A stretch of DNA of 64,000 nt from Heterodontus francisci (lineage: Eukaryota), in NCBI RefSeq assembly GCF_036365525.1, contig NC_090404.1:7874001-7938000 (forward strand), given 5' to 3'. Below the pieces are notes generated by a model that was given only the letters and a program-made list of their open reading frames with translations, ran no database searches and was not told the origin of the DNA. Below, one piece after another: positions 1 to 62,856 of this stretch; the stretch's first letter is position 1, and each line of letters starts with the position of its first letter. A program made the translations under genes and the position numbers.

Positions 1-84
1 GAGGTGATATTGAGAGCGATTATAAACTGACGGTGAACATTCATTCTGATAGTCTGTCAAACGGCGGGTTTTGCAGTCACTTAC

Positions 85-426
85 CGGCTGTGATCGTCAC
101 CACCGTCCCGGATCCATCCACGTATCTAGTATCCACCCCAGTGCCGTCGTACTCAGCTTTACAGTAATAGGTGGCGCTGTCTTCAACTCTCACATCTCCA
201 ATTTTCAGGGAAAATGTCTTTTCTGCCTTATTCACCGACACAACAAATCGCCCTCCACCGGAGATCCGCTCCCGCTCCGTCCCGGTCTGGGTTTGTCTGA
301 AGAAATGTCCATTTTTGAAATAATGGCATGAATTACCAGAGTCAAAAACACAGGTGATGGTGAGAGACTGACACTCCTTCCTGGTCACCGCTGCCGGGGT
401 CTGTCTCACTGACTGACTTAAAGAGT
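85..426 (-). CDS. Germline-joined, leaderless NAR-TCR V-D-J exon, copy A (intact)
   Basis: A 342-nt exon between acceptor ttccag| (AG at 428-427) and donor G|gtaagt (84), phase 1 at both ends. Open frame: SLSQSVRQTPAAVTRKECQSLTITCVFDSGNSCHYFKNGHFFRQ...ATYYCKAEYDGTGVDTRYVDGSGTVVTITA. V runs into J with no RSS between them. Upstream homology to the leader intron stops after about 60 nt and no leader exon follows. Confidence 0.92.
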
Positions 427-1209
427 CTGGAAATTAACCAGAGAGAGTTTAATGGGCCATCGGAGCCGAAAAACACAACGGGTTAAAACCCCTGATTTAG
501 CCTGAGTCTCCCGGGCCCTATTACCGTTATTAAACCATTTGTTCCTTCCTGCTTCAAACAGCTGGATTTTATCCTGATCGGTACTCTGCTCTAGAGCTTT
601 GATTTATCTTTTCAAATTTACTAAATTAGCATTGGGATTATATTGTATCCTCTATTTAACAGTCGGAATCGGATAGGCTGCTGCAGGTATCAAAGGGACA
701 GCTTAGTGTTGGTTTCATTCGTCCGGAACTTCATTCACACTACCTGGCCGGGAATGGATTATTCTGCCTAAGACAGAGAGAGAGCTGTCACCCTCTTCCG
801 GGCTCTCAGGGACAGACAGAGCTTCCTCAGTCACAGTGAACAACGGGAGCGGCGGCCGGTGTCTCGACAATCTGCGCTCATTTCAACTAACTTTGGATCA
901 GAGTGAGAAGGAATCAGGGATGCTTTGGGGATTCTCCCTGGTCCACGTTATACTGCTGATGTTCCAGATGCAGTCAGAGCCCCGCAGACTGCCTTCACTG
1001 GGGGATCTCACCTCATCTCTCCGAACTAAAACCTGGACCAAACTTCCGGTTCACAGCTTACTCCGAATCACAAACTGCAATGAAAAAGTTCCATCAGGGA
1101 ACTGCTGTTTTATTTTTAAGGGATTGAGGTGACACTGATCGCGATTATAAACTGAAGGTGAACATTCACTCTGATAGTCTGTAACACGGCGGGTTTTGCA
1201 GTCACTTAC

Positions 1210-1551
1210 CGGCTGTGATCGTCACCACCGTCCCGGATCCATCCACGTATCTAGTATCCACCCCAGTGCCGTCGTACTCAGCTTTACAGTAATAGGTGGC
1301 GCTGTCTTCAACTCTCACATCTCCAATTTTCAGGGAAAATGTCTTTTCTGCCTTATTCACCGACACAACAAATCACCCCCCGTCGGAGATCCGCTCCCAC
1401 TCCGTCCCGGTCTGGGTTTGTCTGAAGAAATGTCCATTTTTGAAATAATGGCATGAATTACCGGAGGAAAAAACACAGGTGATGGTGAGAGACTGGCACT
1501 CCATCCTGGTCACCGCTGCCGGGATCTGGTTCACTGACTGACTTAAAGAGT
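1210..1551 (-). pseudogene. Germline-joined, leaderless NAR-TCR V-D-J exon, copy B (premature stop)
   Basis: Same 342-nt structure, splice sites and CDR3 as copy A, with several framework substitutions. The CGA of GGGRF is TGA here (plus-strand tca at 1373-1375). Confidence 0.9.
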
Positions 1552-2321
1552 CTGGAAATTAATCAGAGAGAGTTTAATGGGCCATCAGCGCCGAAAAACA
1601 CAACTGGTTAATACCCCTGATTTAGCCTGAGTCTCCCAGGCCCGACCGTTATTAAACCATCTGTCCCTTCCGGACTCAATCTTATCCGGATCGGTACTCT
1701 ACTCTACAGCTTTGATTTATCTTTACAAATTTACTAAATTAGCATTGGGATTATATTTTATCCCCTATTTAACTGTTGGTATCGGATAGGCCGCTAAAGG
1801 TATTAAAGGGACCGCTTTAATGTTGGGTTCATTCTCCTGATACCTCATTCAAACTGCCCGACCCGGAATGAAATATTCTGCCTAAGGGGGAGCGCTGTCA
1901 CGCTCTCGCGTGCTCACAGGGACAGACAGAGCTTCCTCAGTCACAGTGAACATCGGGAGTGGAGGCCGGTGTCTCGACAATCTGCGCTCATTGAAACCAC
2001 TGTGGATCAGAGTGAGAAAGAGCCTGGGATGTTTTGGGGATGCTCCAAGGTCCACATTAAACCGCTGATGGTCCAGATGGGGTCACCACCCAGCAGACTG
2101 CCTTCTGTGTGGGGATCTCACCTCATCTCTCCAGACTCAAACCTGGACCTTACTCCCGGTTGATAGTTTACTCCGAATGTAAAACTGCAATGAAAAATTT
2201 CCATCAGGGAACTGCTCTGTTTCATTTTTACGGGATTGAGGTGACATTGATCGCGATTATAAACTGACGGTGAACGTTCACTCTGACAGTCTGTAGCACG
2301 GCGGGTTTTGCAGTCACTTAC

Positions 2322-2376
2322 CGGCTGTGATAGTCACCACCGTCCCGGATCCATCCACGTATCTAGTCTCAGTAAA
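2322..2376 (-). CDS. NAR-TCR J segment (cassette 1)
   Basis: FTETRYVDGSGTVVTITA then G|gtaagt. RSS: heptamer cacagtg 2377-2383, 23-nt spacer, nonamer acaagaact 2407-2415. Confidence 0.93.
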
Positions 2377-2763
2377 CACAGTGATACCGTTCTCAGTCAT
2401 GCCGGTACAAGAACTACCGACACCTCAACCTGCTGGTCGTACATCACCAGACAGTCGGCGCTGCCCAGTTATTCCAGGGATTGTAGATCAATAAATAATA
2501 TTCCATGTTTTACATTCCCTGTCGGTTCAAACTGTTCCTTGTGAGACTCTGAGCTCTTCATAACATAGCCCAGGAACACGGGCCGGAGGTGGACCCTTCA
2601 TAGAACGGGAGAAAAATGTCAAAGACAATAGAAAGGATGAAATTACAATAACCTTAAACCACCTTGCAGTGATAATAACATCAAACCTACAATTCAGGAT
2701 TCGTTCCCTTGGAGTTTATATTTTAACTGTATGGAGGTATTTGTTCAGGTCTCATCCACTGTG

Positions 2764-2779
2764 ACGTTCCATAAGTAAT
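2764..2779 (-). CDS. NAR-TCR D segment (cassette 1), ATTACTTATGGAACGT, with 12/12 RSS
   Basis: Plus strand: ggtatttgt (2736-2744), 12 nt, cactgtg (2757-2763), D, cacagtg (2780-2786), 12 nt, acaaaatcc (2799-2807). Confidence 0.9.
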
Positions 2780-3159
2780 CACAGTGTTTCAAGTCAACAC
2801 AAAATCCCCCGGTACTTGGTGAGATGTGGGGATATTATTTAAACGCCGAGAACTGCGATTTCCGGATCCAGCTGTTAGATCAGGATCCCATCTGGTGTCA
2901 GGGGCTTCTCAATGGGATCAGTCATTCCCAATCTCCATTCACTGACACCAATCCCGGGAAAGACATCAACATTCGCACATTCCCGGCATTTATAAAACTC
3001 AAGATGTTAACGGCAATAATCCAATCTCATTATAAACTAGACTGTGGAGCAGACGGTGCGAGGCGGAACTGCGTGGATTAACTGTGCTTTTTCATTTGTT
3101 TCTGTGATAATCTGCAGTCAGAGATTTTGTACCGCGGGAAGCCGAGGCCCATCACTGTG

Positions 3160-3644
3160 TGTCCTTGTAATATCTGTACTCAGCTTTACAGTAATAGGTG
3201 GTCGTGTCTCCAACTCTCACATCTGGAATTTTCAGAGAAAATGTCTTTTTCGCCTTATTCACCGACACAACAAATCGCCCTCCACTGGAGATCCGCTCCC
3301 ACTGCGTCCCGGTCTGAGTTTGTCTGAAAAAATGCCCATTTAGGAAATCATAACGCCAAAAACCACCAGAGTAAACACAGTTGATGGTGAGAGACTGACA
3401 CTCCTTCCTGGTCACCGCTGTCGGGTTCTGTGTCACTGACTGACTGAAAGAGCCTGGAAATTAAACAGAGAGAGTTTAATGGGCCATCAGGGCCGAACCA
3501 CACAACGAGGCTAAAACCCGAGACAGTGTCTGGAATTCGGATGGACTCGGGCAGCTTCATATTAAATCCACACAATGTCGGTTTGTTTGATCGGTACTCA
3601 CGGGGTAAACAGACACACAGGGTGAAAACAAGGAGGATTCCCAT
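3160..3644 (-). CDS. NAR-TCR V segment with leader (cassette 1): leader 3602-3644, V exon 3160-3453
   Basis: Leader MGILLVFTLCVCLP then C|gtgagt. V: QSVTQNPTAVTRKECQSLTINC...FFRQ...TYYCKAEYRYYKD, with IgNAR-like short CDR2 region and FR1 Cys (KECQ). RSS heptamer 3153-3159, 22-nt spacer, nonamer 3122-3130. Confidence 0.93.
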
Positions 3645-4900
3645 CGTTCTGCTGCCTGGAGCTGATGGTTTATATGACGGGGAGCTGGAGACTGCAGTCC
3701 TGGACTGCTCTGGGAGACTGGACCTCAGAGCTGGACTGAAATACTTCAGTGGGGGGGGGATTTGCAGAGGACCGTGTCCCGGAGATCATTGATGGGCCGC
3801 ACGGTTCCCTGGTCTTTGACTGTGTGTTGTGTGAATAAGCGACAGGTTTAAAGAGGGAACCTACAATTTTCTGTCGCTTCATTGGGTCTGCGAGCCCGAT
3901 GTGAAATCCCCTCCCACATTAGTCTGATGTACAGGGGGTGGGGCTGGGGGAGTTGTTCTTTCAGTAAAGGCTGCCGCCCTCCTTTCCCCCACAGTAATGA
4001 GCTGCATGTGTTTTTATTGGGTGGTGTTTGTTGAGGTTGGAATGTGGGCCCAGGACAGCGGGAAAATTCCCTTTCCCGCTCTTATTCCAATAGTGCCGCG
4101 ATTCTTTAATGTCTTCACAAACGGCTGGTAGGGCCTCGGTTAAAAGTCTCATCTGACGGACAGTGCCTCAAATCCGGCAGCTTCCCTCAATCCAGCAACT
4201 GAGGATCAGGTTACAATATGAGACAGTCCAGTGACATTGTCAATATCCAGGCAGATATACACAATGTACACAAAAAATATACTCTCCCTGTCATTTAAAC
4301 ATATGTTTCCTGTACCCTCCCCTTCTGCGGTTTGTGTTCAAAATGTCTCAATCCAGTAATGATTAATTTCCTGGTCTGTAATATTCAGGGTTACCAGTTG
4401 CAGTGACAGAGAATGAAGCGACACTCGGAAAGACATTGGGGGAACTCTGTGCTTGATGCTTGTGAAGGCAGCTTGCGTAATCTGTATATTATGTACAAAC
4501 TGAGTCCGACCAGGCAACACAGTCTGATCAAATAAACCCTGCGAGCAGGCCACGGTCAAAGCCTCCGGGAAACTGACAGAGGAGATGTGGAAAGAACTAC
4601 TCAATATTGCAGGCAGGCACGGAAGAGACAGCAAAAGAGAAAAGGGGACTTCAGGTTCACGGCACGTAACCCAAACATGGCCGACCGTCCGTCACACGAA
4701 GACGGTCGATGCTTGAAATGACCTCGCAGCACCGCCGGATGGGCGGTCGCGGGGTCCTAATGTCCATGTAGAGAATATCTTGTCTGCGTGATCAGAAACA
4801 ACTTTAAAGAGCACACACAAACTGTTAGCTTAAAACATAATTTTTGCACAAGTATTTATCCAATTCCGATTTGCTTTCGAATGTTACTATTGAATCTGCT
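3645..4900 (-). promoter_or_regulatory. Conserved NAR-TCR V upstream/promoter region
   Basis: Homologous to about 47900-49097 (plus) and 61578-62250 (minus). TATAAA lies about 25 nt upstream of the ATG in all three cassettes. Confidence 0.6.
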
Positions 4901-8780: not shown

Positions 8781-9975
8781 GTGCATCACCTCACTCTTCT
8801 CAGGATTAAATTCAATTTTCCACTGCTCCACCCATCTTAACAACCCATCTATATCATCCTATAATCTAAGGCTGTCCTTACTATATACGACACCACCAAT
8901 ATTCGTGTCATCTGCGAAGTTACTGATCATACCTCCTATATTCACGTCTCAATCATTAATGTCCACTCCAAACAGCAAGGGTCCCAGCACCGATCCCTGA
9001 GGTACACCACTGGTCACAGGCTGCTTCTAATCGCAAAAACAACTCACGAGCATCACCCTCTGCCTCCTGCCACGAAGGCAATTTTGGATCAAGTTTTCCA
9101 AATTGCCCTGGATCCCATGGGTTCTTAGTTTCTTAACCAATCTTCCATGCGGGACCTTATCAAGAGCCTTGCTGAAGTCCATGTAGACTACATCAACTGC
9201 GTTAGCCTCATCTACACATCTAGTCACCTCCTCGAAAAATTCAATCATGTTTGTTAGACAGGATTTCCCCCTGACAAAGTCATGCTGACTATCCTTGATT
9301 GATCCCTGCCTCTCCAAGTGGAGATTAATCCTGTCCTCCAGAATTTCTTCCAATAGTTTCCCTACCACTGATGTTAGACTCACTGGACTGTAATTACCTT
9401 GTTTATCCCTACTACCTTTCTAGAATAATGGTACCACATTAGCTGTCCTCCAGTCCTCTGGCACTTTTCCTGTGGGCAGAGAGGATTTGAAAATTTGTGT
9501 CAGAGCCCCTGCAAACTCCTCCCTTGCCTCACATAACAACCTGGGATACATCTCATCTGGGCCTGGGGTTTTATCCATCTTTAAGTCCCCTAAAACAGCT
9601 AGTACTTCATTTCAATGCTAATTTGTTCAAGCATATCGCAATCCCCCTCCCTGATTTCGACGCCTACATCGTCCTTCTCCATAGTGAACGCAGATGAAAA
9701 GTAATCATTTAAAACCTCACCTATGTCCTCCAGCTCCACACACAGATTGTCATTTTGAAACCTAATGGGTCCTACTCTTTCCCTGGTTATACTCTTGACA
9801 TTCATATATTTATAAAACGCCTTGGGATTTTCCTTTGTCTTGCCCACCAGTGTTTTCTCGTATCCCCTCTTCGCTCTCCTAATTACTTTTTTAAGTAACC
9901 CCCCCCCCCCCCCCCCACGCCGCCCGCCACACTTTCTATACTCCTCTTGGGCCTCTGCTGTTTTCTGCGCTATGA
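8781..9975 (-). mobile_element. CR1-type LINE fragment
   Basis: ORFs 9027-9383 (SLTSVVGKLLE...YMDFSKALDKVPH) and 9599-10057 (KENPKAFYKY). Confidence 0.85.
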
Positions 9976-30400: not shown

Positions 30401-32035
30401 TTGACTGCCAGCGACTTCTACCTCTCAGAAAAAACGTTCAAGATTATATGAGTGATAATTATCTCGCTATCCAACAACTATCCAAAGACATTGAATGAAG
30501 AACGTGGTTTCGGCTGCACACAAAGAATGTAATAACCAGACATTGACAAACTGCAATTGACAACTCCTATGTAAGATATACGTAAATTCAAACTGTCCTT
30601 CTTCTGTTTTAATCAGGGATACAACAATTCATTCAAAACCGATCATCAAATCGAACACAGCGGTAGAATCGATATGTTCTTACTGAAATCATTTCAGGCA
30701 TAATTAAAAATTGCCTCCAGCCTATAAAAATTCCCGGTCCCATTAATTTTGCGCAGGGCAGAGCAGAATTGTGAAAGGCGATTAATGAATAATGAATTGA
30801 TATGAATATTAAGGCATATTTTGGTGAATAGCGTGAGATATTGCCGCAATATAATTGCTTGAATTACATTAGCTTTAATCTCTAATCTACAAAATTGGCA
30901 CTGATGTAGTTTGCAATTGCAGCAACATTTCACGTACTGAATGAGCGTGGTTAACCATGGCTTCATAGTTTAATCTGCAATTATCGCTTAAATAAATAAA
31001 ACATTATAATCTCTTTTAACTTTTGTTTTACTTTCTGAAACCTGTCAATGTTCTACTGTCTTTCAAATGGTTTTAAACATGATCAGAAACCGGCAGACGC
31101 CGCTGTCACCGAGGTTAGACAATGCAGAAACGCCAAATAGTTTCACACATTGCACTTCTTCAAAGTAATCCAGACACACACTCTCCTCAGCAGGTAAACA
31201 AGCAATCACATCACTGGGGGGCTGAATCCCGCCTCAGTACGCTTCACAGAGAAGCAGCTCAATTCTACAAACCCTTTCAGCAGAATCAAATGTAAGATTG
31301 CAAAAAAAAATCTCAACACAGGATCCACAGAACCCACCTGTTTCTGAAGGAATTAATTGCTATATTTGCCAGATATATAAAATAATGGCAACAGAATTGT
31401 TCGTAGAAGAAACATGTTTAATAAATTGATATTGCATATTTTAGTAATACTGGCTGATATTACGAAATTATAATGTGAATTTATATTAAATTAAATCTGA
31501 GCGAACCTGTAAATTTGTTATTTTAGTGGTTCTTAATTACATCAAAATCGTGTTATATATGAGCGCATGCGCGCATTAAATTAATATATTACAATTTAAT
31601 TATCACAAATAAAAATAGATCAAAATACCGTGAGGTTATCTTTGATCGCTGAGGCTTTCTGCCTATAATCTTACTTCAAACATATTTAAACGCTTATTGT
31701 TTGTGTTTGATCAGAAAACCTTGAGCAACTAGATGTCACCAAGATTAAAAATTGCAGAAATTTCAAACAGCTTAAAGTACGTTAGGTATTTAAAGTAGCC
31801 CAGACACACAGTCCCATCAGCAAATAAACACCACATCAAATCAATCAGGCGCTGAATCCCTCAAATTAAATTCTCTAATCCCGTTGCAGCAAATGAAATG
31901 AAACCATTGCAACAAATCTCAATGGGGAATCCAGTGAAACCACATTTCAGTGAAGGAATGTATCATTAACATAAGCAGAAATATAAAATAAAAACACAAA
32001 TAAACCAGTTGCTGAATGAGTTTATGTTTTTTTAC

Positions 32036-32110
32036 CTGCAGTCACCGTCACCATGGTCCCTTGTCCCCAGAACTCATGATAGTACGAACTATCCATACCC
32101 ACGAGAATAC
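32036..32110 (-). CDS. Germline-fused IgH D(-D)-J segment with a single 5' 12-RSS
   Basis: GT ATT CTC GTG GGT ATG GAT AGT TCG TAC TAT CAT GAG TTC TGG GGA CAA GGG ACC ATG GTG ACG GTG ACT GCA G|gtaaa = ILVGMDSSYYHEFWGQGTMVTVTA. Heptamer 32111-32117, 12-nt spacer, nonamer acaaatact 32130-32138. Confidence 0.85.
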
Positions 32111-32289
32111 CACAGTGACACGAACCCGTACAAATACTGCACTCAGTCTCTGTCCAGTACTGTCTCTCAACATTCACTTCAAATAGAAATTCCCTTCTGA
32201 TCCAGCACAGAATATATCCAAAAGTTTACACCATTCAGTAGGAAGCGAACACAGATCCAAGTAACTCCCTACAAGTAACAGTCACATTG

Positions 32290-32500
32290 AAACCAACATT
32301 TGTTGCAGCGCGGAAGAAGGCCATTCGGCCCATCGTGTCGGCACTGGCTCTCTGAAAGAGCAATTCCCTCAGTCCCAGTCCCTGCCTTAGCCCCATATCC
32401 TTGCACATTCTTCCTTTCCATAGAACTATGAATGCTTCAATTGAACCTGCCTCCACTACTTTCTCAGGCAGCGCATTCCAGATCTTAACCACTCGCTGCA
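32290..32500 (-). mobile_element. CR1 3'-end fragment between VH and D-J
   Basis: QRVVKIWNALPEKVVEAGSIEAF followed by the CR1 3' UTR (atgggccgaatggcc). Confidence 0.75.
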
Positions 32501-32749
32501 ATTACTGACACTGTTAACATAAATATCAGCACGGCCAAAATTACTCATCAATACTTCGGTCAGTGTCTTAGATTTGCACCATTGAATTTTCACTGTGTTA
32601 GTTTAGTACCAGACGGGAGAAGGTCTGGTTCTGAACACTACTGTTAATATGGTATTTAGCAAGTACTGACCGTCAGGTTATAATAGAATATCTCGAATTC
32701 CCCCATGATCTGTTCTTGTGCGGGTCCAGCCCTGGTTTCTCTCGCTGTG

Positions 32750-33230
32750 GGACTCCAAAACAGTAATAGATGGCGGTGTCTTCTGTCTTCAGGTTCTTCA
32801 TGTCCAAAGCGAAGGTGTTGTTTGAAGTGTCTTTGGATGCGGTAAATCGATTTTGAATCCCTGGTGCGTAAGCATCTCTGGATGAACTATAGTAATAAAC
32901 TAACCACTCCAGCCCCTGCCCGGGAACCTGTCGGACCCAATACATATTGAAGCTGCCTAGACTGAACCCGCTGGTTTTACAGGTCAGTTTCAGGGCGCCT
33001 CCGGGTCTCCCGGTCTCTGCCTCTGGCTGAGTCAACACGGCATCCGAATGGACACCTGTCAAAAATATCAAAAAACCCGAGGATTAATCCTGGTGAAATG
33101 ATTCCTGACTCTGTAACATTCCAGAGAGAGAGTCTAACACTGAGACAGTAACAGTGAGAGAATCAGGCAATAAAAACTACTCACGGGATAAGAAAACCAG
33201 CAACAGACTGAGAGAAATCGCCGACCTCAT
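32750..33230 (-). CDS. IgM VH segment with leader: leader 33185-33230, V exon 32750-33055
   Basis: [67 protein letters not shown]...[14 protein letters not shown] cacagcg (32743-32749), 23-nt spacer, acaagaaca (32711-32719). TATTTAAA at about 33322-33329. Confidence 0.95.
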
Positions 33231-36739: not shown

Positions 36740-39715
36740 CATAGAGATACACAGCCCAGAATCAGGCCCTTCGGCCCTTCGTGCCCGTGCTGGCCATCAA
36801 GCTTTCTAATCCCATTTTCCAGCACTTGGCCCGTAGCCTTGTATGCTATGACGTTTCAAGTGCTCATCTAAATACTTTTGAAATGTTGTGAGGGTTCCTA
36901 CCTCTACCACCCCTTCAGGCAATGTGTTCCAGATTCCAGCCACCCTCTGGGTGAAAAAAGTTTTCCTCAAATCTCCTCTAAACCTCCTGCCCCTTATCTT
37001 AAATCTATGCCAGCTGGTTATTGACCCCTCCGCTAAGAGGAAAGGTTTCTTCCAATATACCCTATCTGTGCCCCTCATAATTTTGTATGCCTCAGTCAGA
37101 TCCCCCCTCAGCCTTGTCTGCGCTAAGGAAAACAATCCTAGCCTGTCCAGTCTCTCTTCATAGCTGAAATGCTCCAGCCCAGGCAACATCCTGGTGTATC
37201 ACCACTGTATCCTCTCCATTGCAATCACATCCTTCCTATAGTATGGCGACCAGAACTGTCCACTGTGGCCTAACTAGCATTTTATACAGCTCCATCATAA
37301 CCTCCCTACTCTTATATTCTATCTCTCGGTTAATAAAGGCAGGTATCCCATATGCCTTCCGAACCACCTTATCCAGCTGTGCTGCTGCCTTCAGTGATCT
37401 ATGGGCAAGTACACCAAGGTCCCTCTGACCCTCTGTACTTCCTAGGGTCTCACCACCCATTGTATATTCCCTTGACTTGTTAGTCCTCCCGAAATGCATC
37501 ACCTCACACTTCTCAGGATTAATTTCCATTTGCCACTGCTCTGCCCATCTTACCAGCCCATCTATATAATCCTGTAATCTAAGGCTTTCCTCCTCACTAT
37601 TTACGACACCACCAATATTCGTGTCATCTGCGAAACACCTCCTAAATTCACGTCTAAATCATGAATATACACTACAACAGCAAGGGTCCCAGCACAGATC
37701 CCTGCCGTACATCACTGGTCACAGGCTTCCAATCGCAAAAACAACCATCGACCATTACCCTCTGCCTCCTGACACTAAGCCAATTTTGGATCCAATTTGC
37801 CAAATTGCCCTGGATCCCATGGGCTCTTACCTTCTTAACCAATCTCCCATGTGGGACCGTATCAAAAGCCTTACTGAAGTCCATGTAGATTACATCAACT
37901 GCTTTACCGTCATCTACACACCTAGTCACCTCCTCGAAAAATTCAATCGGTTTGTTAGACATGATCTCCGTCTGACAAAGCCATGCTGACTATCCTTGAT
38001 TAATCCCTGCCTCTCCAAGTGGAGATTATTCCTGTCCCTCAAATTTTTTCCAATAGTTTCCCTACCACTGATGTTAGACTCACTGGCCTGTAATTTCCTG
38101 ATTTATCCCTGCTACCCTTCTTGAATAATGCTACCACATTCGCTGTCCTCCAGTCCCTTGCCACTTCTCCTGTGGCCAGAGAGGATTTGAAAATTCGTGT
38201 CAGAGCCCCTGCTATCTCCTCCCCTGCCTCAGATAACAGCCTGGGATACATCTCAGCTGGGCCTGCGGATGTATCCACTTTTAAGCCCGCTAAAACCGCT
38301 AATACTTCCTCCCTTTCAATGCTAATTTGTTCAAGTATATCACAATCCCCCTCTCTGATCTCTACACCTACATCATCCTTCTCCATAGTGCTCACAGATG
38401 TAAAGTAATCACTTAAAACCTCACCTACGCCATCCGGCTCCACACCCAGATTATCACTTTGGTCTCTAATGGGCTCTACTCTTTCCCTGGTTATCCTTTT
38501 GCCCTTAATATACTTATAAAAACGCCTTGGGATTTTCCTTTATATTGCCCGCCAGTGTTTTTTCATGCCCCCTGTTGGCTCTCCTAATTACTTTTTTTGT
38601 ACCCCCCCCCCCACCCCCCGCCCCACCCACACACACACAGACACACACACACTTTCTATACTCCTCTGAGACCTCCGCTGTTTTCAGCACATATCTTTGT
38701 CTAACATTATTTCTCATTCTGATCCTATTTGATGTTTGCCTTCATCTCATCTGCCTTCCAATTTCGCTTACTACTTTTCTACTTCCTGTTATCAGCTTTG
38801 CTTCCCTCCAATTTGAGCCCCCTCTTAGGTTTCCAACCCCTGATAATGTAGTTTAAACCCTCAGAAACAACACTAGCAGATTTCCCTGAGGATATTAGTT
38901 CCAGTCCAGCTAAGGTGCAACCTGCCCACCTTGTACAGGTCTCACTGCCTCCAACAGATCCCAATGCTTCAGAAATCTGATGCCCTCTCTCCGACACCAA
39001 TTCTCCAGCCATGTGTTCAATCGCTTAATCTTCCTATTCCTATGATCACTAGCACGAGGCACTGGAAGTAATCCTGAGATTACTGCTTTTGAGGTCCTGC
39101 TTTTTAATTTCTTTCTTAACTCTTTAAACTCTATTTTCAGGACCTCATCCCCTTCTTACCTATGTCGTTGGTACCAACGTGGGCCACGGCCTCTGGCGTT
39201 TTACCCTCCGCCAGAAGAATGTCCTGCGGCAGGTCTGTGACATCCTTGACCCTGGCACTAGCGAGGCAACATATCATCCTGGTGTCACGTCTGCGGCCGC
39301 AGAAACGCCTGTCTGTTCTTCTAACTAACGAATCGCCTATCACTATTGCCCTTCAGCCTTCCTACCTCACCTTCTGTTGCAGCTGAGCCACCCGTGGTGC
39401 CACGGACTTGGTTCTTGCTGCACTCCTCTGAGCAACCATCATGTTCACCCATATACAAAATGGAAAACCGGTTGGCAAGCGAGATTAATTCAGGTGACTC
39501 CTGCACTAGCGGCCTGTTTTCGTAGACTATTTGGCGGTCATCCATTCCCTCACTGCCTGCACATTCTTAACGTGCGGTGCGACCACCTCCCTAAATATGC
39601 TATCCACGGAGTTTTCCACCTTGCAGATGCACCATAGTAACTCCAGCCGCCGCTCGTGTTCTGAAACACAGAGTTAAGCTACTGCAGTTGATGACTCTTC
39701 CTGCAGATGTGTTTG
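36740..39715 (-). mobile_element. Long degenerate CR1 LINE (ORF1 esterase region + ORF2 RT)
   Basis: IGDSLVR...HVGTNDIG (SGNH esterase of CR1 ORF1, 39137-39343), NYRPVSLTSVVGK, YMDFSKAFDTVPH, QGSVLGPLL, and a 3' end at about 36740-36800. Confidence 0.88.
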
Positions 39716-46184: not shown

Positions 46185-49097
46185 CTCTCAGTGAGTCCGG
46201 TATCAGCTATCTCTCTGCAGCAGGGCGGGGCTCATGGCACAGAAATACGCGGCGCTGCCGGAGATCTGGGTGTTGTGGATCGTTAGCTGGGTAATCGTGG
46301 CAGTTTTGCTAAACATAGAAGAGAATCTGTCAGCGAATTCAGGCTTCCGGATGAAACACGTACTGAAGAGGCTGCCCGGGGTGCTAACTACGCCAGAATA
46401 TAGAAGGGTTAGTTAGAAGTGCTTGTTTGCAAGGTACAGGTTAATGTGATATTACTTACCTCTTCAACCATCATTTCAGGAACCGGCTGTTACATTATGT
46501 CTCGGTGACTCCATTCTAAAATACTAAAAATAGTAACAGTCACAATGAGCATCGACATCGTATGGATCAATATAACCGTCAATACCACCATCACGATCAT
46601 TTCACATTGTCCGCTACAGCGGACAGGGTGTAGAATGGATTTTTACTGGGAAGGAAATTCTTACTGAGAAGCGGTGAGAGACTGTTCCCCATGATACTTC
46701 CTGAATCTGCAACTCTGCAGTGCAGGAAATTCTCTGTCGGAGCAGGAAGACAGATCCTCGCCACCCTGCACTGCCGATCTAATACCAAACAAGGAACAGC
46801 GGCAGCAATCTCCAAAACGGGGCAGGCAAGGCAGGTCAGAGAGAAAGAGAGAGAGAGAGCGAGCAGCAAACTAAAGCTGTGGGCGGAGCTGCCGCCAACT
46901 CCAGTTTGAGTTAACTCAAGATTCTGTGTAACCGCAGAGATTGCGCAGTGAGGGTGTTGATGGAGTGGAAAGGGAGATAGTTGGATGGCAGAATTCTGTT
47001 GGCAGGCTGCTCCTGATCACTGTTTACGTGACTGGGAACAAATAACTTGCGAAAGAAATTAAGGAACTAGAAACATCGGATCATAAAGCACCGAATGATA
47101 CCATTTGGCCCATCATACCTGCGCCGGCTCTTTGAAAGAACTATCACCTTAGTCTCCACTCCACGCTCTTTCCACACAGTCCTGCATTTTTCCCGTTCAA
47201 ATACACATACTGTTCTCCTTTCAAAATTACAATTGAATTTGCTTCCTCCGCCCTTTCAGGCTGTGCATTCCAAATCATGAAAATCGCACTTTAAAAATAA
47301 ATCTCCTCTCCCATGTCTTTTTTGTCAATTCCATGAAATCCGGGTTCTTGGGATATTAAATTTCCTGCCATTGGAAATATTATATTATAGCGATCTATTA
47401 TAGCAAAACCCAATATAATTCTAACTTCACAATGAAATCTCCCTTAATCTTCGATATAAAGAGAATAACTGCAGCTTCTCTAGCCTCTCCACAAGTCCCT
47501 TATCCCTGATCAAAACCGATTAGATCGCCTCTGCACCCTCTCCAAGGCCATGAAAACATTCATGAAGTGGGGATTGAAATAATTTCATTCATTCATTAAT
47601 TCCTCTTCAGATTATTTCCAAGGATTTATGAACTCTTTCAATTAGACTGTGCAGTAATGTGAGTATTATGAATATTCATAAAAATAACAGTCCTTGCTCT
47701 AATCGTGCAGGCGGTGCCTGATGAGCTCAGAAACATTGGCCTCTGCAGGAATCATATTTCAATAGCATCTCTGTCCCTCCCTGCAGATAGGATGCTTCGT
47801 TACGTTAAAGCCGCTCTATAAATACAATTTTTTGTTCATGTAGATATAAGGAAAAACAATGTTATGCAAAGAGTTGTTCTGCTTGACCGAGAAGTGAAAG
47901 CAGTAGCATTCAAAAGTAAAAGACAAATGGAAAAATACTTGATGCGCAAACATTATGTGTCAAGCAGACTGTTTGTGTTCCCATCAAGCAGATGGGAGTT
48001 TAGTGCCTGGGTGGACTTTAGGTCTCTGCGACAGCTCATTCGGCGGTGTTGTGAGATCCATTAAACCATTGGCCATGTTTCTTTGCCGGGTTGTGCTCCT
48101 GAAGTTCCCTTTTTCCCCTGAGCAGCCCTTTCACTGTCTCCCTGTCAGTTTCCCGGAGCCTTTCACCGCGGCCTGTTCACCGGGTTTATTTGATCAGAGT
48201 GTGTTGTCGGGTCAAATACAGCTTATACAAAATGAACAGATTTCACAAAGTAGTGACTGCGATCTTTAAAATAAATCCCAAGCACAGAGTTCCCCCAATG
48301 TCCATTGTCCTTCTGAGTGTCTCCTCATTCTCTATCACTGCAACTGGAAACTCTGAATATTACAGGCTGGAAACCAATGATGACTGAATTGAAACATTTT
48401 GAACACAAACCACAGAAGGGGCGGGTGCAGAATGCATATGTTAAAATGATAGGGGGAGTTTACCCTTGTGTATATCTGCCTGGATATTGACAATGTCACT
48501 GGACTGTCTCATATTGTAACCTGACCCTCAGTTGCTGGACTGAGGGAAGCTGCCGGGTCTGAGGCTCCGTCCTTCAGATCAGGTGTTTAACCGAGGCCCC
48601 AACAGCCCGTTCAGGGAGATGTTAAAGAATCCCCGGCACTATTGGAATAAGAGAGGGGAGGGGGGATTCTCCCGGTGTCCTGGGCCCACATTCCACCCAC
48701 TGCAAACACCACCCAATAAAAACACATGGAGCGACCTCCCAGCTCATTACTGTGGGGGAAAGGAGGGCGGCAGCTTCTACTGACAGAACAACTCCCCCAG
48801 CCCCACCCCCTGTACATCAGATTAATGTGGGAGGGGATTTCACATCGGGCTCACAGACCCAATGAAGCGACAGGAAACTGCAGGTTCCCTCTTTAAACCT
48901 GCCGCTTATTCACACAACACACAGCCAGAGACCCGGGAACCGTGCAGCCCTTCAATCATCTCCGGGACACTGCCCTCTGCAACTCGATCCCGCTGAAATA
49001 CTTCAGTCCAGCTCTGAGGTCCAGTCTCCCAGAGCAGTCCAGGGCTGCAGTCTCCAGCTCCCCGTCATATAAACCATCAGCTCCAGGCAGCAGAACG

Positions 49098-49578
49098 ATG
49101 GGAATCCTCCTTGTTTTCACCCTGTGTGTCTGTTTACCCCGTGAGTACCGATCAAACAAACCGATATTGTGTGGATTTAATATAAAACTGCCCGAGTCCA
49201 TCCGAATTATAGACACTGTCTCGGGTTTTCGCTCGTTGTGTGGTTCAGCTCTGATGGCTCATTAAACTCTTTCTGTTTAATTTCCAGGCTCTTTCAGTCA
49301 GTCAGTGACACAGACCCCGGCAACGGTGAGCAAGAAGGAATGTCAGTCTCTCACCATCACCTGTGTTTACAATGGTGGTTTTTGGGCTCGTCCTTTAAAC
49401 AGGGGAGATTTTTTCAGACAAACTCAGCCAGGGACAAAGCGGGAGCGGATCTCCAGCGGAGGCCGATTTGTTGTATCGATGAATAAGGCAGAAAAGACAT
49501 TTTCTCTGGAAATTGAGGATGTGAGAGTTAAAGACACCGCCACCTATTACTGTAAAGCTGAGTACAGGTACAAGAACA
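49098..49578 (+). CDS. NAR-TCR V segment with leader (cassette 2): leader 49098-49140, V exon 49288-49578
   Basis: MGILLVFTLCVCLP; QSVTQTPATVSKKECQSLTITCVYNGGFWARPLNRGDFFRQ...TYYCKAEYRYKN. RSS cacagtg (49579-49585), 22-nt spacer, acaaaaact (49608-49616). Confidence 0.93.
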
Positions 49579-49968
49579 CACAGTGATAGGCCTCGGCTTC
49601 CCGCGTTACAAAAACTCACTGCAGATTATCACAGAAACAAATGAAAAAACGGAGTTCATCTGCCCTTCAACCCTGCAGTTCCGCCTCGCACCATCTCCCC
49701 CCACAGTCTAGTTTATAATGAGATTGGATTATTTCCGTTAACATCGTGAGTTTTATAAATGCCGGGTGTGTGCGGATGGTGATGTGATTCCCGGGATTGG
49801 TGCCAGTGAATGGCGATTGGAAATGACTGACACGAGTTCCAAATTCTTAACACCAGAAGGGATCCTGATCCAACAGCGAGAACCAGGAACCACAGTCCCT
49901 GCCGTTTAACTAATATCCCCACATGTCACCAAGTACCGAAGGTATTGACGCCGACTTGAAGCACAGTG

Positions 49969-49982
49969 TTGACAGGGCTGGC
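49969..49982 (+). CDS. NAR-TCR D segment (cassette 2), TTGACAGGGCTGGC, with divergent 12/12 RSS
   Basis: ggtattgac, 12 nt, cacagtg (49962-49968), D, cacgatg (49983-49989), 12 nt, ccaaatatc. Positionally homologous to the cassette-1 D. Confidence 0.75.
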
Positions 49983-50372
49983 CACGATGGCAGAGACTTG
50001 ACCAAATATCTCTGTACAATTAAAATCGAAACTCCTCGGGACAGGATCCTGAATTGTAGATTTGATATTATTATCGCTGTAATCTCGTTTAATGTCATTG
50101 TAATTTCCACCTTTCTGTTATTTTTCTTTGACATTTTTTCCGTTTATATGAAGATATCATCTCCGGCCCGTGTTCCTGGGCGATTTTACTAAGAGCTCGG
50201 AGTCTCACCAAGAACAGTTTGAATCGACGGAGAATGTAAAACATGGAATATCATTTATTGAAATAAAACTCCTGGAATAATTGGACAGCGTCGACTGTCT
50301 GTTGAAGTGTGGCCGGCAGATTGAGGTGTCGGTCGTTCTTGCACTGAGCTGACTGAGAGCGGTGTCACTGTG

Positions 50373-50424
50373 GTGTATTATGATTCTGTGGATGGATCCG
50401 GGACGGTGGTGACTGTGACAGCCG
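50373..50424 (+). CDS. NAR-TCR J segment (cassette 2)
   Basis: VYYDSVDGSGTVVTVTA then G|gtaagt. RSS cgttcttgc (50334-50342), 23-nt spacer, cactgtg (50366-50372). Confidence 0.92.
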
Positions 50425-50959
50425 GTAAGTGACTCCAATCCCATTCAGGCAGTCCCTGTCAATGCTTACCGTCACTTTATTATTGTGATCAGTACTGCTT
50501 CAATCCCCTTCGAACTAAAACAGAACGGTTTCCGATGAAACCTATCCATTGCAGTTTTCGATTGGGGAACAGAATATGAACAGGGAGTCGGTTCCAGTAC
50601 TGAGTCCGGGGTGAGTAGATGTGAAACCCCCACAGAGCAGACAGTCTGGCCCGAGTAGGTGTGACCCCATCTGGATCAGCATTGGTTTCAGGGGCATGTC
50701 GGGGCATTCCACCATCATTCCGGACTCTCTCCCGCACTGCTAATTGGTTTAAATGAACTCAGATTGTCCACACTGCGACCCCGCTCTCGCGGTTACAGGC
50801 GACTGTCTCTGCAACACAGGAGCGGGGTCACAGAGCTCTCTCCTGGGCAGACGATTGCAGTCGCAGCCAGGCAATGCCAACACTACACTACAGAGGCCGG
50901 TCTGATAGCTGCAGCAGCAGGAAAACGGCAGCATGACAAAGCAGGTTTCAAGTACAAGA

Positions 50960-56610: not shown

Positions 56611-57017
56611 ATCAAAACACAACTGGGGTGCTTTCGGGGAATATGTTTTTGGAAGGGGATGCTCTCGCTGATATTAAAACGTTTCCAGTTTGTCTTCCCA
56701 CTCCCCCTTGCTTTTCCTGCATGACCCGTGCATTTTTTTTCCTGGTCCAACATTTATCCAATTCCTGTTTGAAAGTTAATATCAATCTGTTCCGACCCCC
56801 CATTCTGACAGTGCATTCCAGATCATAACAACTCGCTGTGTAAAATAAAATACACATCATCTCTGCACTGGTTCATATCTCAGTAACAGTCAATAAATTT
56901 TGAACAGGCTTCAAATGAAGCAAATTACCGCGAAAACAATAACTACTCCTGCGATTGACAAGTTTCTCCGCGGAAACACCGGCTAAACAATTAATAATAT
57001 TCATTTTCATACTGCAG

Positions 57018-57323
57018 ATTCCACTTCTCTGGTGTCCCAGAGTCCGCCTCTACAAACCTCTGCTGCTGGTGACACCGTTACTTTAAGGTACGAATATTCA
57101 GGGTTCTGTCAGTACACAGTACTCTGGTACCGTCAGTCCCCAGGGCAGGCTCCGAAATACCTGCTTCAGATACACACTTCAGGAGAGGAAAATAAAGAAA
57201 ACGCAGCCGAGGGACGAATTTCTGCATCAATCGATCCTACCAAGAAAATCAGCCGATTAAAAATCTCCAAACTGCAACTGAGTGATTCTGCTGTGTATTA
57301 CTGTGAGCTGAGTCGGCGCACAG
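57018..57323 (+). CDS. Leaderless supporting TCR V-delta segment for NAR-TCR (first canonical Cys replaced by Tyr)
   Basis: Acceptor ctgcag| then DSTSLVSQSPPLQTSAAGDTVTLRYEYSGFCQYTVLWYRQSPGQAPKYLL...DSAVYYCELSRRT. CDR1 Cys present and no leader exon found. In splice phase with the J at 50424. Consensus RSS cacagtg (57324-57330), 23-nt spacer, acaaaaacc (57354-57362). Confidence 0.88.
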
Positions 57324-57407
57324 CACAGTGATACAGAGCACGGAGAGAGCTGTACAAAAACCTGAACATGGTGGGGATTACAGACACACAGTGATACAGA
57401 GCACAGA

Positions 57408-59054: not shown

Positions 59055-59727
59055 CGGTTTCTGTCTCCACAGATGCTGCCTGGCCTGCTGAGTATTTCCA
59101 GCATTTCTTGTTTTTATTTCAGATTTCCAGCATCTGCAGTATTTTGATTTTATTTTAGTGTTTAATTCACTGCCACTTCTCTTCCAGGAATGCCTACCTT
59201 GAAGAAGTTCCGCTCTTCTCTCCGGCCTCTGTACTGTAGTGTTCACTCTCACACTATTCACATTGCCCGGCACAGACTGCAATCTTCTGCCCAGGAGAGA
59301 GCTCTGTGATGCTGCTCATGTGCTCACAAGGACAGTCACATGTAACAGCGGGAGCGGGAGCGGGGTCGGGGTGTCGACAAACTGAGCTCATTTCAACCAA
59401 TTAGGAGTGAGGGAGAGAAAGTCCGGGATGTTAATAGGATGCACGACATGCCCGTTAAAGCAATGTTGATCCAGATGGGGTCAAACCTACCCTGGCCAGA
59501 CTGCCTTCTTTGTGGATGTCTCACGTCTTCTCACTCCGGACTCACTCCCTGACCCGACTCCCGGTTCATATTCTGCTCCCCAATCTAAAACTGCAATAGA
59601 AATGCTCCAATGGAAACCGCTGTGTTTCAGTTTGAAGGGGATTGAAGTGATATTGATCACAATGATAAAGTGACGATAGATATTATCCGGGTCTGTCTGC
59701 AACACGTCGGGGTTTGGAGTCACTTAG

Positions 59728-61577
59728 CGGATGAGACAATCACCACTGTATCGGATCCATCCACAGCACCAGATCGACGCACAGTGTCACCGCTCCCAGT
59801 CAGGCCGGTACAAGAACTACCGACACCTCAATCTGCCGGCCACACATCACCAGACGCTGCCCAGTTCTTCCAGGGGGTTTCCATCAATAAACAATATTTC
59901 ATATTTCACAGTACCTGTCGGTTCAAACTGTTCTTTATAAGACTCTGAGTTTCTTAGTGAAATGGCCCAGGACCACAGGCCGGAGATGGGTGCCTCATAT
60001 AAACAGGGAAACATGTCAGAAGAAGGAGATTACAATTAAATTAAACCAAGTACAGAGATAATAACATCAACCCTGCAATTCAGCACCGAGACCGGGAACT
60101 TATATTTAACTTGTACAGTGGTATTTGTTCAGGTCTCTTCCACTGTGACCTCCCCAAAAACACAGTATTTCAAATCAACAGAAAATCCACCGGTACTTGG
60201 TGAGATGTGGGGTTATCAGTCAAACTGCGGGTCTGTGGTTCCCGATTCCTACTGATAGATCAGGATCCTGTCCGGTGTTAGGGATTTGTAACTGGGATCA
60301 GTCATTCCCAATCGCCATTCACTGACACCAATCCCGGGAAAGACATCACCATCTGCACACACTCGGCATTTATAAAACTCAAGATCTGAAGGGCAATAAT
60401 CCAATCTCATTATAAACTATGATGCTACCTTCCACGACAGAGCTTCTGATATGTCTTCCTTTCTCCTCAACTGAGAATTCACCACACTGTGGTTGACAGG
60501 GTCCTCAACCGTGTCCGGCCTATTTCCCGCACCTCTACCCTCACCCCCTTCCCCTCCCTCCCAGAACAGGGTTCCCCTTATCCTCACCTTCCACCCCACC
60601 AGCCTCCACAGCCAAAGGATCATCCTCCACCACTTCCGCCACCTCTAGCGTGATGCCACTACAAAACGCATCTTCCGCTCCCTTCCCCTGTCAGCATTAC
60701 GTAGGAATCGTTCCCTCCGTGACAACCTCGTCCACTCCTCCATTACGCCCACCACCTCGTCCCCTTCTCATGGCACATTGCCCTGCAATCGCAGGAGGTA
60801 TAACACCTGCCCATTTACCTCCTCTCTCCTCACTATCCAAGGCCTCAAACACTCCTTTCAGGTGAAGCAGCGATTTACTTGTACTTTCAATTTAGTGTAC
60901 TGTATTCACTGCTCACAATGTAGTCTCTACATTTGGGAGAGCAAACGCAGACTGGGTGACCATTTTGCGGAACACCTCCGCTCAGTCCGTAAGCATGACC
61001 CCGAGCTTCCGGTTGCTTGGCATTTCAACACCCCCCGCTTTTTAATTTTTGTCTGTGATGATCTGCAGAGAGTTTATGTACCACGGGAGGCCGAGACCCA
61101 TCACTGTGTGTTTCTGTAGTACTCAGCTTTACAGTCATAGGTGGCGGTGTCTTCAACTCTCACATCCCGAATTTCCAGCGAAAATGTCTTTTTTGCCTGA
61201 TTCGTCCTCATAATAAATCGTCCTCCGCTGGAGATCTGCTCCCGCTCTCTCCCGATCTGGGTTTGTCTGAAGAAATGGCCACTCTTTAAATAATAAGCAT
61301 AACCATATAAAACACAGGTGATGGTGAGAGACTGACACTCCTTCCTGGTCACCGCTGCCGGGGTCTGTGTCACTGACTGAAAGAGACTGGACATTAAACA
61401 GAGAGAGTTTAATGGGCCATCAGAGCCGAACCATACAACGAGGTTAAAACCCGAGACAGTGACTGTAATTCGGATGGACTCGGGCAGCTTTATATTAAAT
61501 CCACACAATGTCGGTTTGTTTGATCGGTACTCACGGGGTAAATAGACACACAGGGTGAAAACAAGGAGGATTCCCAT
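59728..61577 (-). pseudogene. NAR-TCR L-V-D-J cassette 3 (pseudogene): leader 61535-61577, V 61109-61386, D 60148-60160, J 59728-59779
   Basis: The V lacks one TCAG unit after the acceptor, giving CAG TGA in the spliced frame, and has YDC for YYC. The J donor is mutated (G|ctaagt) and J reads GSDT for GSGT. The D 5' heptamer is cacagta. A Penelope fragment sits between V and D. RSS remain recognisable (V 22-nt, D 12/12, J 23-nt spacers). Confidence 0.88.
60419..61040 (+). mobile_element. Penelope-like fragment inserted between V and D of cassette 3
   Basis: FQVKQRFTCTFNLVYCIHC...ESKRRLGDHF. Absent from the homologous V-D spacers of cassettes 1 and 2. Confidence 0.85.
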
Positions 61578-62856
61578 TGTTCTGCTGCCTGGAGCTGATG
61601 GTTTATATGACGGGGAGCTGCAGCCCTGGACTGCTCTGGGAGACTGGACCTCAGAGCTGGACTGAAATACTTCAGGGGGTCGAGTTGATTTGCAAAGGGC
61701 AGTGTCCCGGAGATGATTGATGGGCCGCACGGTTCCCGGGTCTCTGACTGTGTTGTTTGAATAAGCGACAGGTTTAAAGAGGGAACCTGCAGTTTCCTGT
61801 CGCTTCATTGGGTCTGTGAGCCCGATGTGAAATCCCCTCCCACATTAGTCTGATGTACAGGGGGTGGGGGTGGGGTAGTTGTTCTGTCAGTAGAGGTTGC
61901 CGCCCTCCTTTCCCCCACAGTAATGAGCTGGGAGGTCTCTCCATGTGTTTTTATTGGGTGGTGTTTGTTGAGGGTGGAATGTGGGCCCAGCACACCGGGA
62001 GAATCCCCCCTCCCCGCTCTTATTCCAATAGTGCTGGGGATTCTCCAGTAAAGTGACTGTGAAAATCCCAATACACTTTTCGAGCTTCCAGTCTTGCTTC
62101 TGAACGGGCTGGCGGGGCCTCGGTTAAACGTCTGATATGAAGGACGGCACCTCCGACCCGGCAGCTTCCCTCAGTCCGGCAACTGAGTGTCAGGTTACAA
62201 TATGAGACAGTCCGGTGATATTGTCAACATCTAGGCAGATATACACAATATACACAATATATATCTCACTTTCCGCATCTCTCTTTTTAACTCTGCCTCA
62301 CCCTGTCTGTTTAATTCGCTGCCTTCCTCAATCCCTCCCTCTCTCATTCACTCTTTATATCCCCTCTCCTCTCCCTCAGTAACATGCAAAGCGTAAAATA
62401 ATAGAAATCAGTCTCAATCCTTTAACATTACTGCCAAAACCATTACTAGTCACAGTTTAAAGACCATGAGGGACATTATTTAGTGGACATCACTCTGTCC
62501 TGAGATTTTTTTTTAATGTGACCTGACCGATCTACACCATAACCAGGACATGTACCTGTAGAAATTGATTATTTTAATCGTTCCAAAAATGTGAAGGTCT
62601 GTGCTAACACTCGGGGTAAAAATGTCTGAATTTGATCCTAACTTAAAATGATTGAGGAATTTCACTGATCCCTGTACCGACAGCACTGACTGTAGAAACC
62701 CGATTGGTCAGGTTGTAATTTCTCTTTCATTTTCTGTACAATCTCTGTGGAACCAAAGCCTGGTATTTTCCTGAGGTGCAACAAACCCGCCACCCACACA
62801 GATACCGAGACTTGACCTGTTTTTGTATTCGGCCCGAGGGACCCTCATTCACTTTG

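Follow-up and report, generated by a model that had tools for sequence, protein, structure and literature searches.

The 64,000-nt stretch of DNA analyzed here (the window) is horn shark (Heterodontus francisci) TCR-alpha/delta locus, and it contains two inherited, leaderless NAR-TCR exons, arranged in tandem, in which V is fused to J. The exons, termed copies A and B, lie between an unjoined NAR-TCR cassette and, according to a RefSeq gene model, the supporting V-delta of that cassette. The fusion is a real germline feature. The 18 nt at its seam are probably a remnant of a J recombination signal, and we somewhat favor an origin by microhomology-guided DNA deletion in which this signal was left uncut.

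Locus setting

Three unjoined NAR-TCR cassettes were found in the window, cassette C (minus strand, 3644-2322), cassette P (plus, ~49.2-50.4 kb) and cassette Q (minus, ~61.5-59.7 kb), together with a supporting V-delta (57.0-57.3 kb), a conventional V (~43 kb) and an IgH cluster (32-33 kb). Cassette C, on the minus strand, behind which the fused exons lie, is composed of a leader (3644-3602), an intron and an unjoined V with an open frame (3453-3160) that is followed by a 22-spacer recombination signal sequence (RSS; 3159-3122), an unjoined D (2779-2764; feature 2736..2807) flanked by two 12-spacer RSS, and an unjoined J (2376-2322; feature 2322..2415) with a 23-spacer RSS at 2415-2377. Loose ends of contigs in a DNA sequencing run (X1) are evidence of further segments outside the window, a J paralog with a coding part like that of the cassette C J and a spacer like that of the cassette P J (loose end at 2371), and a D resembling that of cassette Q (loose end at 2785).

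Cassette P (48900-50430, plus) is inverted relative to C and Q, and its D has decayed signals. In its supporting V-delta (57010-57362, plus) Tyr replaces the first canonical Cys, yet the RSS is perfect. Cassette Q (59720-61700, minus) looks pseudogenic, with 4 nt missing from the start of the V exon and an altered YYC motif. The IgH cluster (31950-33200, minus), which is situated inside the TCR locus, comprises an open V with a 23-RSS, then a degenerate first D and then a fused D-J. A 12-RSS (32111-32138) lies ahead of this D-J, whose seam is free of any heptamer remnant, and the fusion is probably an ordinary germline D-J coding joint.

Anatomy of the fused V-J exons

Copy A (426-85, minus) has an open frame of 113 aa, bounded by a phase 1 acceptor and a phase 1 donor. 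Its V extends down to 149 and is followed by the 18-nt seam (148-131) and by a J that equals the J of cassette C minus its first 9 nt, with 1 difference in 46 nt. Copy B (1551-1210, minus) carries the same 18 nt at its own seam (1273-1256), has no leader, and is interrupted by an in-frame stop at 1375-1373. Both copies keep the splice acceptor, the splice donor and flanking intron, and no intact RSS was found at either. The first-pass annotation, made from the sequence alone, had described this arrangement of V, 18 nt and shortened J with intron on both sides, and had noted that the CDR1 of the joined V differs from that of the adjacent V; all of this is borne out, and the CDR1 differs from those of the V segments of cassettes P and Q as well as C. 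That annotation had overlooked three features, namely the missing leader exons of both copies, the stop codon of B and the alignment of the 18 nt with a J recombination signal.

The spacer upstream of A (427..1209, minus) comprises, in this order, J-downstream intron, a stretch of ~230 bp that the other cassettes lack and a leader-V intron remnant of ~70 bp, and it contains no leader and no poly(A). The spacer upstream of B (1552..2321, minus) is 12% diverged from it. In both, homology to the V intron stops ~70 bp above the acceptor. The ~230 bp insert (493-720 and 1618-1847), located between the J-intron homology and the V-intron remnant, had no convincing match elsewhere within the window. 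An ATG-to-donor scan of both spacers found no leader exon for A or B, and the same scan recovers the leader of the cassette C V. We also considered a decayed leader upstream of the copies and rejected it, as an 11-nt similarity to the donor region of the leader lacked significance (56/300 shuffles were as good); the corresponding match of the other copy (4/300 shuffles as good) is in a different register.

Copy A encodes a NAR-type V domain, as its best PDB matches are VNAR domains (E 5e-23). It is 52-81% identical to shark NAR-TCR models, and its 113 residues match the H. francisci RefSeq model P0004 (XP_067869961.1) at 100%. In the passages of PMC1845163 compared, a leader together with an a-b loop Cys distinguishes a NAR-TCR V, and a supporting V has a CDR1 Cys and no leader. 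Copy A has a Cys in the a-b loop (codon 373-371) and lacks the tryptophan of the WYRK motif, as do the NAR-TCR V of that study, but neither copy has a leader of its own. Nor are A and B assembled somatically from RSS-flanked V, D and J, as they are fused in bulk DNA.

Germline status

Eight listed contig pieces of 180 from DNA run X1 represent both unit spacers, upstream of A and of B, together with the unjoined J-D interval of cassette C, all at depth 10.6-13.8. Contigs specific to each unit have depths of 11.3-13.8 (spacer above A) and 11.2-11.7 (spacer above B). This equal depth indicates that A, B and the unjoined cassette are present in equal, single-copy number in bulk DNA, in a run that may be the sample from which the window was assembled. 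A second sample (X8) contributed 14 reads, some of them on each unit spacer and, among those listed, none across the seam; the coverage of a RAD run (X9) extends from 2884 onward only. We are highly confident that A and B are of germline origin.

A somatically rearranged lymphocyte allele, or an assembly duplication of one such allele, would account for the identity of A and B over the seam, and the window may have been assembled from the very sample of the deep DNA run. Such an explanation is nevertheless very improbable. The two spacers are 12% diverged and assemble into separate contigs with a depth equal to that of the unjoined interval, the second sample has reads on both spacers, and the copies, which have no leader, sit behind an intact unjoined cassette. 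The diverged duplicate argues against a lymphocyte contaminant, as the first-pass annotation had stated.

A and B are not retrocopies, because introns are kept and poly(A) is absent; positions 1-3800, in which a poly(A) signature was looked for, contain no run of at least 7 A or T. The fusion was made at the DNA level, and the earlier claim of a germline, DNA-level and not retrotransposed origin is upheld by these features together with the single-copy depth in X1.

Sequence of the seam

The seam of A can be divided into 5 nt (148-144), a heptamer-like 7-mer (143-137) and 6 nt that resemble the 5' end of a J (136-131). Aligned on the motif common to all J, it matches the flank of the unjoined J of cassette P (50334..50425, plus, including the RSS) at 13/18 positions in a fixed register, the template at 50361-50378 having been chosen after the alignment was seen. 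The match comprises 2/5 spacer bases, 6/7 heptamer bases and 5/6 J bases. A 13/18 match in the best of four registers has a shuffle p=2e-4 (one million shuffles), and a 6/7 heptamer in either register has p=0.0025. The distance of 15 nt from the heptamer-like 7-mer to the shared J motif is that found in the J of cassettes P and Q. In addition, the V-end motif CTGAG (152..156, minus), a candidate microhomology, is located 8 nt before the heptamer-like 7-mer; the J spacers of cassettes C (2396-2392) and P have this motif at the same distance from the true heptamer, and that of Q has it with one mismatch.

The seam has no match to the 5' end of the cassette C J (3/18 and 9/18). Exact matches to the three NAR-TCR D of the window and to the IgH D reach at most 5 nt, in the D of cassette Q, with which the seam has 7/8 bases in common; the earlier statement that the 18 nt match none of the three local D is consistent with this. 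We simulated RAG joints from the local segments (three V ends, the D and the J), allowing for trimming, N additions rich in GC and 8-12% of subsequent change. Among in-frame joints (3 settings, ~205,000 each), 13/18 or better was reached at a frequency of 6-9e-4, and in combination with the observed length register at 1-2.4e-5.

RAG-type germline joints are reported to keep no RSS and to show little TdT activity in the parts of PMC2193156 compared. In the seam, 6/7 heptamer bases and 13/18 bases of the J flank can be attributed to an RSS, an attribution that is statistical, not absolute. There is no palindrome (P bases) before the inferred J start, and a reading based on D requires ~10 N bases. 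Gene models of other sharks often extend through the J signal; 17 read its heptamer in this one frame, and 5 of these, all from basking shark, continue W-D/E-T. Judged from protein, these 5 models independently put the start of J right after the heptamer-like 7-mer, which fits A with one G missing. A comparison of the same seam with proteins of other species gave 5 matches among 46 candidates, with 100% identity only in P0004. The first-pass annotation had taken the 18 nt for D and/or N bases that record RAG activity; given the 13/18 alignment to an unjoined J flank in a fixed register, this is not supported as the preferred reading. Whether the seam is a signal remnant or a V-D-J joint, it does not show RAG cutting at J.

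Origin of the fusion

We hypothesize that the fusion began in a germ-line cell, when sequence was deleted between the V-end CTGAG and its counterpart in a J spacer. Such a deletion would remove the V RSS, the D and the J nonamer, and the J heptamer would become coding sequence. A one-sided RAG break at V that was repaired in the same way would be indistinguishable. The fused unit would then have been placed behind the J of cassette C without its leader, and unequal crossover between J-intron repeats could have produced two copies. Subsequently, conversion would have homogenized the 3' 189 bp and B would have turned into a pseudogene.

The deletion has to be weighed against a true RAG coding joint in a germ cell, and this weighing was by judgement. 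In such a joint, a trimmed V would be followed by ~8 N bases, a short G-rich D (from the family of the cassette Q D, or unknown) and then J; later leader loss, duplication and conversion are also part of this explanation. TdT additions tend to be GC-rich, and so are the 5' bases of the seam. Several further observations favor a RAG joint and at the same time count against the deletion. The seam shares the 7/8 bases with the cassette Q D, another D of this family is found in X1, and more D paralogs lie outside the window. RAG-type germline joining is established in sharks, by the portions of PMC2193156 compared, and has the higher prior there; it probably occurs in the IgH cluster of the window, whose D-J fusion suggests that ordinary germline joining takes place in this region. 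The deletion also has difficulties of its own. Template and seam disagree at 5 of 18 nt, including 3 of the 5 spacer bases, and the probability of such decay is 0.03 for 10% divergence and 0.28 for 20%. A hypothetical parent J is also required, with a 5' end like the J of cassette P and a remainder like the J of cassette C. A RAG joint is possible on these grounds, but we consider it the less probable origin. Simulated joints from local segments give the signal-like register at 1e-5 to 1e-4, the exact D match is 5 nt only, P bases are absent beside the inferred J start, and ~10 untemplated bases are needed, compared with the little evidence of TdT in the germline joints in the PMC2193156 passages.

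An RNA template for the seam is improbable. In this scheme, splicing of an unrearranged transcript would have linked a cryptic donor at the end of V with a cryptic acceptor inside the J spacer, and recombination would then have replaced the genomic V-J interval with the cDNA, leaving the flanking introns in place. An RNA run (X5, loose end 3172) does show the use of a cryptic donor 2 nt past the V breakpoint, and the RefSeq model P0029 connects V with the J spacer in this manner and has the heptamer in the frame found in A. To arrive at the observed seam, another 3-nt deletion and several substitutions would be required, however, and the retention of the leader-V intron remnant and the lack of poly(A) also oppose a templating RNA. 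Deletion with an uncut J signal remains our preferred explanation.

Duplication and probable gene conversion

All 13 differences between the exons of A and B fall within 250-426 and affect 6 missense codons, 1 nonsense codon and 3 silent codons. By contrast, the two are identical over 189 bp (61..249, minus; 1186-1374 in B) that cover FR3, the junction, J and 24 nt of intron. This clustering is significant when the identical tract is compared with the 5' part of the exon (Fisher p=2e-4). The spacers differ by 92 substitutions and 10 gaps in 765 columns (12%), and at a background divergence of 8-12% the probability of 189 identical bases is below 1e-6. The identity is too improbable at this background, and it points to later gene conversion, the tract being a putative conversion tract within units that are 7-12% diverged. 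The junction is indeed identical in B, as had been stated, but the frameworks have not diverged throughout, FR3 being the same in both. Likewise, the proposed tandem duplication stands, but duplication alone does not explain the identical junction and later homogenization by conversion is needed.

A and B are 9-17% diverged from the other V genes, a range of the same order as the 12% between the spacers, so their duplication is not recent, on a scale uncalibrated in years. Fossil somatic hypermutation was considered as a source of the differences and rejected, as tandem substitutions are not enriched (p=0.08 and 0.19) and controls are alike. An 800-bp dispersed duplicate (9023-9836 and 37725-38540, 12% divergence) served as control.

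Transcription and predicted function

RNA run X5 includes a 78-nt contig that crosses the seam with 0 differences. Together with the spliced leader-V joint of cassette C, which is present in the same run, and with the absence of depth on the spacers, this contig indicates that the fused exon is transcribed in the X5 sample. Another transcript form in X5 (loose end 3172) has the end of an unrearranged NAR-TCR V spliced, via a cryptic donor, onto a supporting V-delta out of frame, and is a sterile form.

The splice phases are compatible, as the donor of the cassette C J, the acceptor and donor of A, and the acceptor of the cassette P supporting V are all in phase 1. The RefSeq model P0004, a prediction, chains the J of cassette C, part of B, copy A and a leaderless supporting V-delta to the left of the window. 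No joint from this J or from a leader into A or B is listed in X5, where 232 pieces are not shown and contigs drop rare forms. The J end seen in this run proceeds straight to a different supporting V, and the start of the B exon is at no depth.

Two hallmarks of a supporting V occur in A, the lack of a leader and a Cys in CDR1 (codon 328-326). A supporting V is also a TCR-delta-type V that rearranges to D-delta/J-delta, whereas A is a NAR-type V fused to a NAR-TCR J. The CDR1 Cys was found in 3 of the 55 V domains compared (A, B and one partial model), a set from which P0004 and P0029 were left out as duplicates of window genes and which does not include P0002, P0003, P0030, P0051 and P0056. 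The CDR1 Cys of A has no partner Cys in CDR3. P0030, with a similar CDR1, has Tyr at the same place, and a single base change, with or without selection, may explain the Cys of A.

Tentatively, A could serve as an optional invariant V exon; in-frame splicing would place it after a rearranged NAR-TCR V and before the supporting V-delta, giving a predicted added domain. A more elaborate proposal is a three-V TCR-delta chain that consists of a rearranged NAR V, an invariant germline-fused NAR V held by the new CDR1 Cys and a supporting V-delta, with a RAG-independent fusion in which deletion made CDR3 out of a recombination signal, and with the same design evolved separately in lamniform sharks. 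We regard this full combination as speculative and rather unlikely.

Comparison with known systems

As far as the passages of PMC1845163 and PMC3457774 describe it, shark NAR-TCR (doubly rearranging TCR-delta) shares with A and B the NAR-type V, the a-b loop Cys, the absence of the WYRK tryptophan and a cassette place upstream of a leaderless supporting V-delta. A and B differ from it in being germline-fused and leaderless, in lying behind the J of an unjoined cassette, and in their CDR1 Cys, which in those passages is otherwise a mark of supporting V-delta. The nurse shark NS4 light chains (PMC2193156) and the IgM1gj and VD-J / VDJ clusters (PMC5192425), in the portions compared, resemble A and B as inherited fusions of DNA-level origin with introns kept. 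Unlike these germline-joined Ig genes of cartilaginous fish, A and B are leaderless and belong to a TCR locus, and their seam likely keeps part of a J signal, of which the NS4 joints keep none.

The V-mu-j of marsupial TCR-mu is, in the excerpts of PMC7615758, PMC2275272 and PMC3457774 compared, a pre-joined V exon behind a rearranging V-D-J cassette that is positioned as an invariant supporting domain, as is A. V-mu-j is VH-related, has lost its leader intron, is ascribed to retrotransposition and is the second of two V domains, whereas A is NAR-related, keeps an intron remnant and acceptor, has no poly(A) and would be the middle of three V. The two are convergent, not homologous. TCR-mu is described in PMC7615758, in the text compared, as the only TCR with a germline-joined V.

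Table S1 of PMC12227049 (2025) labels a white shark model, LOC121270133, as 'NARTCR V(gj)V(gi)V', a label that came from inspecting gene models; in the parts of that paper compared, the model is discussed nowhere beyond the table. LOC121270133 is very likely our protein P0005, which has the same NCBI description and an adjacent accession. P0005 has two tandem NAR-TCR V-J units before a supporting V, like A and B, but its CDR1 and CDR3 are different. We rejected orthology, as P0005 was not grouped with A and B in a poorly resolved tree of 85 columns. The white shark model could be a modelling artefact, since such models often bridge unjoined segments with false introns. Five white and basking shark models (P0005, P0011, P0016, P0027 and P0057) have a Cys-containing CDR3 in common, and three of them (P0011, P0016 and P0057) have a T-V pair in the exact register of a read-through J heptamer. 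These models reflect either an old germline fusion that keeps the heptamer or false introns.

Among the titles and abstracts retrieved from the open literature, none describes a germline-joined NAR-TCR V, and the passages compared discuss none; the original NAR-TCR paper, the 2021 nurse shark locus paper and the rest of PMC12227049 Table S1 may bear on novelty. The literature passages compared contained no shark D-delta sequence.

Germline-joined shark genes have been cited as evidence of RAG acting in germ cells. If the seam of A and B keeps a J signal, there would be a second, RAG-independent route to fused V-J, and fused V-J exons could not all be taken for RAG fossils. A chain into which A is spliced would possess one V domain more than any TCR chain described in the literature passages compared, and would form a parallel to marsupial V-mu-j.
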